Positions 26,916 to 32,510 of a stretch of 64,000 nucleotides of DNA are shown one piece after another. Position 1 is the stretch's first letter, and every line of letters begins with the position of its first letter. The stretch lies in the NCBI GenBank assembly GCA_902558545.1, contig CACEEJ010000003.1, positions 2,050 through 66,049 of the forward strand. The letters are read 5' to 3'. This DNA comes from an uncultured Pelagibacteraceae bacterium. Lineage in GTDB: Bacteria; Pseudomonadota; Alphaproteobacteria; Pelagibacterales; Pelagibacteraceae. Both the position numbers and the translations under genes were made by a program. The notes beneath the pieces are model-generated. The model ran no database searches. It saw only the letters and a program-made list of their open reading frames with translations, and was not told where the DNA came from.

Positions 26916-27485
26916 ATGAATAACTTTATTGAACAAAATGTTTCATTAGAAAAGTGTCCAGCATTAGTACTTAACGCTGACTACAGACCTTTGAGTTATT
27001 ACCCTTTATCTTTATGGTCATGGCAGGATACAGTTAAATCAGTTTTTCTTGATCGAGTTATTATTGTCAGTAATTATGATAGAACTATAAGAAGTCCATC
27101 TTTTAATATGAAATTACCAAGTGTCATTGCATTAAAAGATTATATTGTTCCTCAAAGCAAGCCAAGTTTTACTAGATTTAACGTGTTTCTAAGAGATAAA
27201 TTTTCATGTCAATATTGTGGAAGCAATGAGGAGTTAACTTTTGATCATTTATTGCCTAGATCAAAAGGGGGTGAAACTAATTGGAATAATGTTGTAACAG
27301 CTTGTTCTGCATGCAATGTAAAAAAGGGAGGAAAATTATTAAAACATTCGGGTATGAAATTATATCAGCACCCTTATCGACCATCTACAGAGGATCTACA
27401 CAAAAATGGTAAACATTTTCCACCAAATTTCTTACATAAAAGCTGGATGGATTATCTATATTGGGATGTAGAGTTAGAGGCTTAA
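26916..27485 (+). CDS. HNH endonuclease (conserved alphaproteobacterial type)
   Basis: [42 protein letters not shown]. Confidence 0.9.
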   Translation: [189 protein letters not shown]

Positions 27486-29235: not shown

Positions 29236-30966
29236 ATGAATTTAGATAATTTAAATAATTTGATAGAATTATTTGCTAATCAAGCAAATAAACAAAATAA
29301 AAGAGATATTTTTTTAGAATGGCTAAACCCAAGTAATAAAAAAACATACACATGGGAACAAACTGAAAAGAATATTTTAAAATTATCAAAAGTTATCAAA
29401 GAAAATATAGAAGAAGGCGATAGATGTCTTTTAGTTTCGGAGAATAGACCTGAGTGGTTCGTTTCTGATTTAGCTATAATGCTAGCTGGTGGAATTACAG
29501 TTCCAGCATATACAACTTATATAGAAGATGATTATAAGTATTTGATAGAAGATTGTGAACCCAGCTTAATTATTGTTTCAAATAATGAAATGTTAAAAAA
29601 ATTAAATAATATAATTAATGAAAAAGACTTTATTAAAAAAGTTATAACTATGGATGAAATAGCTAAGGTAACAAATAATTTAAGTTTAAATAACAAAGAA
29701 AAATATTTAGATTATAATTCTGTTTTAAAGAATAATTTATTAGAGGAAGATAAAATCGAAAATAATAAATTAAATAGAAAGTCTCCAGCATGTATAATTT
29801 ATACTTCAGGAACTGGAGGAAATCCCAAGGGTGTAATTTTAAGTCACGGTGGAATTTTAAATAATGTTGTTGGATCGTGTGAAATTACAAAACCATTATT
29901 TAATTCAAGACCAGTATTTTTAACTTGGCTTCCGCTTTCTCATTCTTATGAGCACTGTCTTCAATTTGTACAGATAGCAGTAGGAGCTAGAGTATTCTAT
30001 GCTGAAAAAATTGAAAAACTTCTAGAAAATATATCTGAAGCAAAGCCTACAATTATGGCAGCTGTCCCTAGGTTCTACCAAAACCTATACAATAAGATAA
30101 ACATGAATTTAAAAAAACAGACAGGTTTAAAAGCAAAATTAATTGATGCAACAATTCGTTTGGGAAGAAAAAAACTATTAAATCAAAAAATGACTTTTTC
30201 TGAAAAATTACTTAATTTCGTAGTTGATAGATTAGTGAGAAAAAAAATTAAAAAACAGTTCGGTGGGAATTTGAAAGCCTTCGTTTCAGGTGGTGGTGCT
30301 TTAGATAAAGAAATAGGTGAATTTTTAAATGCTATAGGATTACCGACACTTCAGGGATACGGTTTAACAGAAACATCACCAGTAGTAAGTTGCAATCCAA
30401 TACATAAAATTAAAGTGGAAACTGTAGGACCTCCATTTAAAGGAAATGAAGTTAAAATTGCTGAAGATGGAGAAATTTTAGTTAAAGGCGAAAATGTAAT
30501 GCTAGGATATTGGAACAAAAAAGAAGAGACTGACAAAGTAATTATAAATGGATGGCTTCATACAGGTGATATTGGAGAGATAGATCCAAATGATGGTTAT
30601 TTAAAAATTACCGATAGAAAAAAAGATATAATAGTAAGTGCTGGCGGAGATAACATTTCACCTGCTAAAATCGAAAATATGATTACAAATGAGCCAGAGA
30701 TAGATCAATGTATGGTTTATGGTGATAAAAAAAATTACTTAGTTGCTTTAGTTGTACCAAATAAAGATTTTTTAAATGAAAAAGAAAAAATAAATAAAGT
30801 AATTGAAAAAATAAATATAAAATTAACTTTAGTGGAAAAGATAAAAAGAATTCAATTAATAGATGAAAATTTTTCTATAGAAAATGGTTTAATGACACCA
30901 ACAATGAAAGTAAAAAGAAAAAAAGTTACTGAAAAATATAAAAATCAGCTAGAAAACCTTTATTAA
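29236..30966 (+). CDS. Long-chain fatty acid-CoA ligase (AMP-binding)
   Basis: IIYTSGTGGNPKG, GYGLTET, WLHTGDIG, DRKKD, TPTMK. Confidence 0.92.
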   Translation: MNLDNLNNLIELFANQANKQNKRDIFLEWLNPSNKKTYTWEQTEKNILKLSKVIKENIEEGDRCLLVSENRPEWFVSDLAIMLAGGITVPAYTTYIEDDYKYLIEDCEPSLIIVSNNEMLKKLNNIINEKDFIKKVITMDEIAKVTNNLSLNNKEKYLDYNSVLKNNLLEEDKIENNKLNRKSPACIIYTSGTGGNPKGVILSHGGILNNVVGSCEITKPLFNSRPVFLTWLPLSHSYEHCLQFVQIAVGARVFYAEKIEKLLENISEAKPTIMAAVPRFYQNLYNKINMNLKKQTGLKAKLIDATIRLGRKKLLNQKMTFSEKLLNFVVDRLVRKKIKKQFGGNLKAFVSGGGALDKEIGEFLNAIGLPTLQGYGLTETSPVVSCNPIHKIKVETVGPPFKGNEVKIAEDGEILVKGENVMLGYWNKKEETDKVIINGWLHTGDIGEIDPNDGYLKITDRKKDIIVSAGGDNISPAKIENMITNEPEIDQCMVYGDKKNYLVALVVPNKDFLNEKEKINKVIEKINIKLTLVEKIKRIQLIDENFSIENGLMTPTMKVKRKKVTEKYKNQLENLY

Positions 30967-31125
30967 AATATTTAATTTAAGTTGTTTATTAACCGCATAA
31001 ACATTAACTAAATTAATAAAAAAAAGTTTTATAAAAATAAAAAGTTAAAAAAAATTTTTATAAAATTTAACTTTTAATTAAAGAATTGACATAACTTATA
31101 GAAAAAAATAAAAATATGTTAACAG

Positions 31126-31142
31126 CGAATCAATTTGATTCG
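31126..31142. promoter_or_regulatory. Palindrome with two GANTC sites upstream of the polybasic ORF
   Basis: CGAATCAA-T-TTGATTCG; TTGACA at 31086-31091. Confidence 0.6.
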
Positions 31143-31166
31143 TTTAACTAAAAAAGGGAGCTAAAG

Positions 31167-31259
31167 ATGCCTAAGAAAAGAAGAAAAGCGGCAAAGAAAA
31201 CTAAGAAAAAAGCTAAGAAAAAAGCTAAGAAAAAAGCAAAAAAAAGAAGAAGAAAATAG
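31167..31259 (+). CDS. 30-aa Lys/Arg-rich protamine/histone H1-like peptide, not in the ORF track
   Basis: MPKKRRKAAKKTKKKAKKKAKKKAKKRRRK; SD GGGAG ending 6 nt before the ATG; followed by a terminator. Confidence 0.75.
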   Translation: MPKKRRKAAKKTKKKAKKKAKKKAKKRRRK

Positions 31260-31277: not shown

Positions 31278-31323
31278 AAAAAACGCTTCTCATTACAGTA
31301 GTGTGTGAGAGGCGTTTTTTTTT
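31278..31323. terminator. Bidirectional terminator between the polybasic ORF and carD
   Basis: AAAAAACGCTTCTCAT-loop-GTGAGAGGCGTTTTTTTTT with A-run and T-run flanks. Confidence 0.85.
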
Positions 31324-32227
31324 ACTCGTCAATTGGTTCGTCGTTATCAGAAATTGGCTCCTCTACAGGTAGTTCACTAGTTGGAGTTTTTGCAGCTGTT
31401 ACTGGTTGAGGCTGTCCACCTAAATTTCTTTTTAGTGCTTTATCCAATTTTTTTTGAGTATCCTCTAAAGAAACATTTAAAACAATCTGAAATTCAGACA
31501 AAATTCTTTCATAAGCCTTTTCAAATAGCTGTCTTTCACTATAAGACTGATCTACCATAAGATCATCACCTTTATTTAAATCTCTGACTACTTCAGCCAA
31601 TTCATATATTTTTCCAGAAGATATTTTCGCTTCATATTCTTGTGCTCTTCGACTCCACATTGATCTCTTAATTTTTGGTTTACTTTTTAATATTGAAATA
31701 CATCTGTTAACTTGATTAATAGTTGCTAACGGCCTTAAGTGAGATTGCTTGTTTACAGGGACCATTCCATTAGCTTTATCTTTTTCAAATTTAATAACAT
31801 ATGTTTCAACATCAATTCCACCAATATTAATTTTTTTGAACTCAGTAATTTGGCCTACGCCATGTTTTGGATAAACAACGTGATCTTTAATTTTGTATTC
31901 TCTTTTTTCGGTTTCTTGTTTTTTAACTTTTTTTATTTCAGGTTTAACTTCATTAGTTTTTGAAATTCTTAAATTATCTACTTTTGCTTCAGCTGTTGTT
32001 TCTGCAACTTTAACAGTTTTTTTTATTTTGTTTGCTTTAGGTAAAACTTTTTTAGCAATTTTTTTGGTTTTTTTTGAAATTGTTTTTTTAGCTTTTTTAG
32101 CTTTTTTAGCTTTTACAGTTTTTTTTGCTTTGACGACCTTCTTTTTAGAAACTTTTTTTTTCACTTTTTTGTCGGTTTTGCCTTTAAAGATTTTCTTTAA
32201 AATATTTTTCGTACTTATTTTGCTCAT
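31322..32227 (-). CDS. CarD/CdnL-family RNA polymerase-binding regulator with Lys-rich N-terminal extension
   Basis: [31 protein letters not shown]; ATG 32227 (start uncertain, overlaps fdxA 3' end). Confidence 0.9.
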
Positions 32228-32510
32228 TTTTAAATTTCTCGTGATCCGCTGGTGGATCTTTTTTTTCACTTATGTTAGGCCAGATTTCTGAATATTTTTT
32301 ATTGATCTCTAACCATTTTTCACTTCCAGGTTCAGTGTCTGCTTTTATGGCATCGACAGGACATTCTGGCTCGCAAACGCCACAATCTATACACTCATCG
32401 GGTTTAATTACAAGCATATTTTTACCTTCGTAAAAGCAATCAACTGGGCAGACATCAACACAGTCTGTTAGTTTGCACTTAATACAATTGTCGTTAACGA
32501 TATATGTCAT
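32184..32510 (-). CDS. fdxA: 7Fe-type ferredoxin
   Basis: [36 protein letters not shown]; fdxA-carD synteny. Confidence 0.93.

Follow-up and report, generated by a model that had tools for sequence, protein, structure and literature searches.

The window analysed here is a 64,000-nt stretch of SAR11 DNA in which a gene of the (long-chain) acyl-CoA ligase family and a convergent carD/cdnL gene enclose a short stand-alone ORF for a strongly basic peptide (Table 1). Both neighbours were used as synteny anchors; the top NCBIfam match of the ligase, PRK06187, lay under its cut-off. A preliminary description made from the letters of the window had proposed this ORF as a 30-residue peptide with 22 Lys/Arg and no acidic residue, and our translation agreed, giving 17 K, 5 R, 5 A, M, P and T. 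Among all 6,417 genomic ORFs of 15-80 aa that begin with ATG, this one had the highest K/R fraction, 0.73, with the runner-up at 0.62. The GGGAG Shine-Dalgarno (SD) sequence was found as described, and the spacer of about 200 bp with TTGACA was recovered as a gap of 200 nt between the ligase stop and the gene. A 12-nt repeat unit described for 31200-31247 held in part, as the exact 12-mer occurs only at 31212 and 31224, with variant units at 31200 and 31236. The terminator placed directly after the gene was negative in a strict terminator scan but was evident as a folding hairpin (0/200 shuffles), flanked by an A-run before it and nine T after it. A terminator-type hairpin followed the gene in 127/127 genomes (mean -15.4 kcal/mol), and the one in the window likely serves the convergent carD as well. 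A role as an attenuator leader peptide was ruled out because the next gene, carD, is convergent and no co-oriented downstream gene lies under the terminator.

Table 1. Features at the peptide locus and the distant RNA element discussed in the text (positions are those of the window unless a contig is named).
Feature	Position	Strand	Remarks
Acyl-CoA ligase family (long-chain), upstream neighbour	29236..30966	+	Pfam AMP-binding
-35 hexamer TTGACA, sigma-70-type promoter	31086..31091	+	TTGAC[AT] in 125/125 family and 41/41 sister-family loci
Putative weak A-rich -10	31109..31115	+	4/6 hexamer ending 31115, poorly conserved
Inverted pair of GAWTC methylation sites, GcrA-box context YGAKTCG on each strand	31126..31142	.	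also 5' RNA hairpin, z -5.29
Shine-Dalgarno GGGAG	31156-31160	+	
Predicted RF01814 pairing site (SD, spacer, start codon)	31156..31177	+	14-bp perfect core 31156-31169
Polycation CDS	31167..31259	+	30 aa Lys/Arg/Ala, ATG 31167, TAG 31259
Intrinsic terminator hairpin, A- and T-tails	31278..31323	.	folding z -4.29 (+), -3.49 (-)
carD/cdnL, convergent downstream neighbour	31322..32269	-	Pfam CarD_TRCF_RID + CarD_C
RF01814 'rhtB' hairpin	G000 contig C13, 26901-26955	+	outside the window

Several further features of the surroundings were recorded. CarD carries a lysine-rich N-terminal tail of about 110-120 residues (window 31900-32269, minus strand) and an acidic C-terminal tail, and two basic low-complexity tracts, the peptide gene and the CarD tail, face one another at the locus. 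Among core genes at 26916-27485 lies an ORF that is putatively HNH-endonuclease-like, judged by its motifs. The C-terminus of the ligase is only 54-63% identical to that of the window genome in many genus genomes whose CarD is more than 90% identical (L020-L063 as compared to L001-L018), and 64-79% identical in other genera; these identities hint at allele exchange just upstream of the peptide gene.

To assess conservation, 301 family genomes were searched at the DNA level with a query that contained the gene itself, and 90 loci were drawn from the best 150 matches listed. The gene was intact at 88/90 syntenic loci (87 found automatically and one more lacking the ligase anchor). In the other two (L016 and L069, genomes G203 and G009) the frame was broken by a one-base slip in an A-run. 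Both slips are in homopolymers, and sequencing error or phase variation could each account for them. The search was repeated free of this bias with the CarD protein as sole anchor, and the gene was present at 25/25 loci in the genus, 5/5 in distant genera and 4/5 in the sister family, where the fifth locus was cut by a contig end. Coding length, measured independently of frame, was a multiple of three in 129/131 genomes (one genome was measured only up to its first Ser codon), as compared to modulo 3 distributions of 59/36/36 for the 5' leader and 87/14/29 for the 3' gap. Of the changes between near-identical pairs, which are not independent of one another, 110 were synonymous and 63 altered the amino acid, mostly (55) by K/R exchange. 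Across 127 genomes there were 57 distinct peptides of 19-36 aa composed only of K, R, A, M, T, P and G (K 55%, R 20%, A 17%). Frame, SD and K/R bias were all conserved in relatives. The family and genus search tallies include two unpublished genomes, G223 and G068, on which no claim rests.

Codon usage was also examined, as the preliminary description had noted AAG codons interrupting the A-runs. KKK was written as nine A in 5/239 triplets here versus 123/280 genome-wide, and the mean longest A-run was 7.2 in family genes versus 9.2 when the Lys codons were permuted. This avoidance would be explained equally well by selection to prevent ribosome sliding and by selection to prevent replication slippage. 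A 16S 3'-end motif was sought in the assembly and was not found. Metatranscriptome contigs spanned the ORF in 4/4 runs examined (of 8 RNA data sets from 7 studies that contain it), with no information on strand or level, and RNA depth was highest over the ORF in all four; these runs are contigs chosen for containing the locus, from which no level can be derived. Taken by comparison, the 30-codon ORF is a genuine, conserved stand-alone SAR11 gene, and its peptide is almost certainly translated.

The gene adjoins carD across the Pelagibacterales. It encodes 19-50 aa in its own family, with forms of 31-50 aa at the same locus in other genera, and 40-99 aa in the sister family, where KKAAP-type repeats follow a short conserved head (41/41 pattern hits). 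Length differed in steps of repeat units, between 19 and 99 aa, and composition stayed constant, which favours a function of charge over one of shape. The sister-family long forms (L303, L354-L394) begin with an invariant 9-residue acidic/hydrophobic head ahead of the basic repeats. This head is missing from every short form; it may serve in partner binding or mark the protein for degradation. Among 29 other Alphaproteobacteria (including the unpublished G745) no such gene was found within about 1.5 kb of carD.

The peptide and its longer forms had no match in Pfam, NCBIfam, PHROGs or PDB, so that the search for an already characterised small protein family came back empty. Hc1 and HC2 profiles were likewise silent, as no Pfam family was matched by the 30-aa form at E up to 10 or by forms of 50-91 aa at E up to 1. 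Exact look-up of nine family sequences in a collection of 15 billion proteins found none present. The 30-aa form gave no result in the Atlas; the 85-aa form is present there as a hypothetical protein, and its nearest named cluster is HC2 (score 0.90, 23% of members), which serves as a lead only. A homologue search with the 85-aa form, limited by low complexity, returned two matches, both from the same unnamed family. By these searches the peptide belongs to none of the described families tested. In the literature searched, which was mostly open-access and included term look-ups in PMC11894785 and PMC5069961, neither the peptide nor its RNA pairing was mentioned in the text covered.

Low-complexity K/A/P/R repeats are a property of chlamydial Hc2, Pseudomonas AlgP, Bordetella BpH and the C-terminal tail of linker histone H1. 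The SAR11 peptide shares this low-complexity basic K/A/R/P composition, by which bacterial H1-like nucleoid proteins are recognised. It differs from Hc2 (PF07382), AlgP, BpH and the H1 tail in having no HMM match and being much shorter, the short forms being pure tail. The preliminary description had proposed a nucleoid-condensing or polyanion-binding H1-like peptide. The KKAAP-repeat orthologues of 40-99 aa argue for the H1-like part of this proposal; condensation we still infer.

A small basic peptide could also bind the ribosome or another RNA, in the manner of bS22, eL41 or bTHX, with the antisense RNA described below tuning its supply. It resembles bS22 and eL41 in size and K/R richness, and has 19-36 aa, a basic N-terminus, an Arg-rich end, a strong SD and its own promoter. 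However, a six-frame search of five genomes, in which controls were detected in 4/14, gave no match to PF08213 (bS22/COX24_C) even at an E-value limit of 10, and there was no Pfam or PDB match of any kind. Unlike these ribosomal proteins the peptide varies fivefold in length through repeat slippage and has no fixed interior residue, which would fit a shaped rRNA pocket poorly. We consider a ribosomal or RNA-binding role unlikely.

The promoter region was compared in the 125 family genomes with enough flanking sequence. Transcription was predicted to start near 31121. The promoter alone was not above chance (1 found versus 3.7 expected), and its support comes from the conserved -35 hexamer and not from the scan score. 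Downstream of the predicted start lies an inverted double box that is the sole such pair in the genome. The left box was present in 125/125 family promoters, its GAATC lying at a distance of 40-43 nt to the -35 hexamer, and likewise in 41/41 sister-family promoters; the right box was intact in 80/125. The YGAKTCG boxes are predicted near +7 and +17, positions that depend on the predicted start site. TGATTCG is reported as the GcrA consensus (PMC4647560), and GcrA boxes are reported to act at +5 to +30, with two in PmipZ (PMC9976885).

The genome has gcrA and a CcrM-like methylase gene, the latter scoring 577, below the equivalog cut-off of 830. The combination that marks a GcrA-activated promoter, a YGAKTCG box near the start together with gcrA and a ccrM-like gene, was present, with the start predicted only and the CcrM below equivalog. 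GAWTC was depleted about twofold (0.47, 0.49), as reported for SAR11 (PMC8919816), and GASTC was not (1.25, 1.38). The locus is like the Caulobacter GcrA/CcrM promoters such as PmipZ in carrying YGAKTCG in the +5 to +30 range, a weak -10, and gcrA with a ccrM-like gene (PMC9976885, PMC4647560). It differs in that the putative SAR11 box is inverted and doubles as an RNA hairpin. In a comparative study, likely control by GcrA was found for few genes of P. ubique (PMC7987155).

The GcrA-type box may be merely a 5' hairpin. At three loci from other genera (L298, L299 and L300, genera g14, g17 and g10) the left box was kept and its hairpin partner had moved downstream, which suggests that the box sequence matters independently of the hairpin. 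The odds that GcrA and CcrM act at the box are about even.

The composition of the peptide is compatible with DNA, RNA, ribosomes or polyphosphate as possible ligands. DNA as the main ligand, the weakest step of our reading, is only slightly favoured. By hand arithmetic, about 120,000 copies, each with a charge of +22, would be needed to neutralise a 1.3-Mb chromosome completely. This would be costly, making protamine-like packing unlikely and partial coating more plausible. The same cost can be turned in favour of a general polyanion buffer, an encoded polyamine substitute or a polyphosphate or RNA binder with no special role at the chromosome, and such a role also agrees with the conservation of charge and spacing only. 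Partial coating, however, takes far fewer copies, and the order-wide fixed GcrA-type box, if truly such a box, points to a link with the DNA cycle. A general buffer is in our estimation likewise improbable.

The genome was searched for copies of the start site. A single near copy was found, reversed, on contig C13, where 21/22 bases match. This copy is the loop of a hairpin (folding z -4.78) lying between DUF2805 and rhtB, and the element is a member of Rfam RF01814 'rhtB', a Pelagibacter family, scoring 81.1 bits against a cut-off of 55 over the full model (positions 1-83). In the published account of its discovery in 2009 the family is described as having a well-conserved loop, and a cis-regulatory or terminator role is proposed, without a target (PMC2704228). 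What is new here is a proposed trans target, tested by covariation. An Rfam scan of the gene region itself gave sub-cut-off matches only, a terminator look-alike and RF01814 on the reverse strand. A possible origin of the RNA is an inverted duplicate of the peptide gene's start region.

RF01814 was found over cut-off in 120/151 genus genomes and in 24/27 of the near-complete ones. It was over cut-off in 23/151 of the family sample, in this genus, g16 and g19, and in 1/151 class genomes, the window's own. Two 92%-complete genomes of the genus, G307 and G309, have the gene and lack an RF01814 match. At the DUF2805-rhtB site of 29 loci from other genera no antisense partner was found. No second identical start-site copy was seen among the matches listed in 40 genomes, and the 16 near copies from that listing were rejected as ordinary starts or chance. 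Apart from the gene, no start-site copy with fewer than 2 mismatches was found in five sister-family genomes. Weak RF01814 matches in genus g2 were discarded as lying inside mraY-like coding sequence, and six viral-contig matches to the RNA loop were discarded as unrelated start sites. On one IMG/VR contig (L399:601-618) an SD and a 12-residue ORF ending in five lysines match the RNA loop, which was taken as chance. No RNA was detected alongside the gene in most of the order, so repression would not be obligatory. A divergent antisense partner in other lineages is possible.

The loop pairs perfectly with the start site over positions -11 to +3 and partially to +9. When 3,779 start windows were ranked (ORFs of at least 80 codons, plus the peptide gene, which was added by hand), the gene was rank 1, at -32.5 versus -24.7 kcal/mol for the next. 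The predicted net pairing gain was -15.3 kcal/mol. The start site of the gene was the only exact loop match of at least 13 nt in the assembly, which is 83% complete. The RNA therefore has the unique extended complementarity to a ribosome-binding site by which trans-acting antisense sRNAs are recognised.

Covariation between the two partners was then examined. A first co-change was seen among the 20 most divergent RNAs, where four genomes had A at target position -1 and U in the RNA. The 401 genus genomes were then scanned for a non-G base at -1, which gave 62 matches in 45 genomes: 17 targets, 14 RNAs (13 by pattern and that of G445 by eye) and 31 chance matches. All 14 U-type RNAs were in genomes with an A target. 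The gene was present in 127 genomes, the RNA in 82 and both in 48; in three other A-target genomes (72-85% complete) the RNA was unassembled, and these were excluded from the 48. The -1 pair in the 48 genomes was G-C in 34, A-U in 14 and discordant in 0. Compensatory change between RNA and target was seen at position -1 only.

On a carD tree of 126 rows four changes of the -1 state were counted, and the hypothesis that A arose just once was rejected (p-AU 9e-5), indicating that the A-U state has at least two origins. Only two independent contrasts fell on well-supported branches; both were concordant, and the sign test was not significant (p 0.5). The tree is that of one linked gene, and the search pattern misses RNAs with further loop changes. 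Position +4 was C in 44/98 genus targets, the window genome included, with no matching change in the RNA, and a +4 mismatch was present in 16/48 genomes with both parts, which counts against the pairing model. The spacer from -7 to -2 was invariant in 98/98 genus genomes and varied in 24 genomes from genera in which the RNA was not found; three near genomes kept the spacer, and the RNA was not found in them. Three C-to-U variants of the loop would still allow G-U pairing. G019 has a loop variant of the RNA, and its target is not assembled.

The strand of the RNA was also assessed. The stem holds 13 G-U and 0 A-C pairs when read on the plus strand, and an extended -10 lies just upstream of the stem in 75/82 copies (shuffles: mean 2.7, max 9). 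The RNA is likely read from this strand. RNA contigs covered the RF01814 locus in 3/4 runs, giving neither strand, ends nor level. A U-tail followed the hairpin in only 34/82. An rhtB-like start codon lay within 40 nt of the hairpin in 65/82 and was absent there in 17/82. The close start means that the hairpin may be the leader of the rhtB mRNA. Opposite the hairpin (C13:26879-26920, minus strand) are an SD, an ATG and a 13-codon ORF upstream of DUF2805.

These features leave room for RF01814 to act as a cis leader or terminator of rhtB, or as a minus-strand start-site decoy upstream of DUF2805, with the co-change arising through one shared factor. The nearby rhtB-like starts, the weak U-tails, the minus-strand ORF and the role favoured by the discovery paper (PMC2704228) all speak for this. 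It is opposed by the non-canonical stem pairs, all 13 of which become mismatches on the minus strand, by the promoter motif on the plus strand and by the retention of the RNA in the 17 copies with no rhtB-like start within 40 nt. Moreover, rhtB sits directly behind DUF2805 with no hairpin in 13/29 loci of other genera (judged by eye), and the three loop variants preserve pairing. We regard a cis or decoy function as quite improbable. The RNA is very probably made from the plus strand and paired with the peptide mRNA, and this pairing would probably block 30S loading without Hfq, which was sought in five genomes and found in 0/5.

The arrangement is like that of HctA (Hc1) and IhtA in Chlamydia, with a highly basic H1-like product, a hairpin-loop RNA over the start codon and an organism without Hfq. 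The IhtA loop is reported to block the hctA start codon free of Hfq (PMC4355289), and HctA is reported to kill E. coli when IhtA is absent (PMC3469542). The two systems differ in their RNAs, as IhtA has 107 nt, three stem-loops and a 7-nt seed whereas RF01814 is a single hairpin, roughly 55 nt long, whose 14-bp core takes in the SD. They differ also in their products, the SAR11 peptide having no Hc1/HC2 profile match, a length of 19-99 aa and no globular part. SAR11 is not known to have a developmental cycle. The resemblance is likely convergent.

A small peptide with an antisense RNA over its ribosome-binding site also recalls a type-I-like toxin-antitoxin or dormancy switch, in which the peptide would stop transcription and translation once the RNA decays. 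In type I systems the peptide is hydrophobic and sits in the membrane, and the antitoxin RNA is encoded next to it or overlaps it. The SAR11 peptide, however, has no hydrophobic segment, its hydrophobic residues being limited to Ala, Met and Pro, and the RNA is on a separate contig and non-adjacent. The gene is core, syntenic and single-copy where seen, and is kept in many lineages where no RNA was detected. HctA does repress gene expression and kill E. coli (PMC3469542), a parallel on the side of a toxin, yet a switch of this kind seems to us highly improbable. That the ORF is an untranslated low-complexity spacer repeat, as its composition and the slips in G203 and G009 might suggest, is hardly credible given its frame, start, SD, stop, codon-position bias and synonymous excess, and the slips may be sequencing errors.

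Together these data suggest the following mechanism. Sigma-70 polymerase, perhaps aided by GcrA at the methylated box, would produce a short monocistronic mRNA. The hairpin RNA, encoded elsewhere, would present its C-rich anti-SD/anti-AUG loop and pair through the 14-bp core, and pairing over the SD and AUG would block initiation. A drop in the RNA or an increase in the mRNA would allow the peptide to be made and to bind polyanions by charge, most likely DNA. Repression would keep in check a polycation whose excess is likely harmful. RF01814, detected solely in this genus and two close ones, is a later addition to an order-wide gene and box. We give this reading as a whole, a DNA-coating polycation under RF01814 antisense repression with possible methylation-linked transcription through a GcrA-type box, a probability of roughly 0.55. 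A more specific version, that this is an independently evolved minimal counterpart of HctA/IhtA, an H1-tail peptide of 20-35 residues derived from ancestors of 85-99 residues that compacts the chromosome, is timed by methylation (GcrA/CcrM) and is silenced by RF01814, is tentative and rather doubtful.

Comparison gives good support to the gene and to the RNA-target link, and the control elements (the antisense RNA and the box), which were absent from the preliminary description, are the better-supported part as compared to nucleoid condensation. RF01814, a targetless Rfam family since 2009, gains a predicted target backed by natural compensatory change, which suggests Hfq-independent antisense control in trans in SAR11. 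The peptide is order-wide and nitrogen-rich (about 2 N per residue by hand arithmetic) and has been retained by a streamlined cell; it is absent from exact look-ups in a large gene-call collection, and trypsin would shred it. If the likeness to HctA/IhtA holds, this would be an Hfq-free trans sRNA with a defined target in a highly streamlined free-living genome, and if the peptide binds DNA, it would be a candidate answer to the packing and timing of the chromosome in a very small cell.
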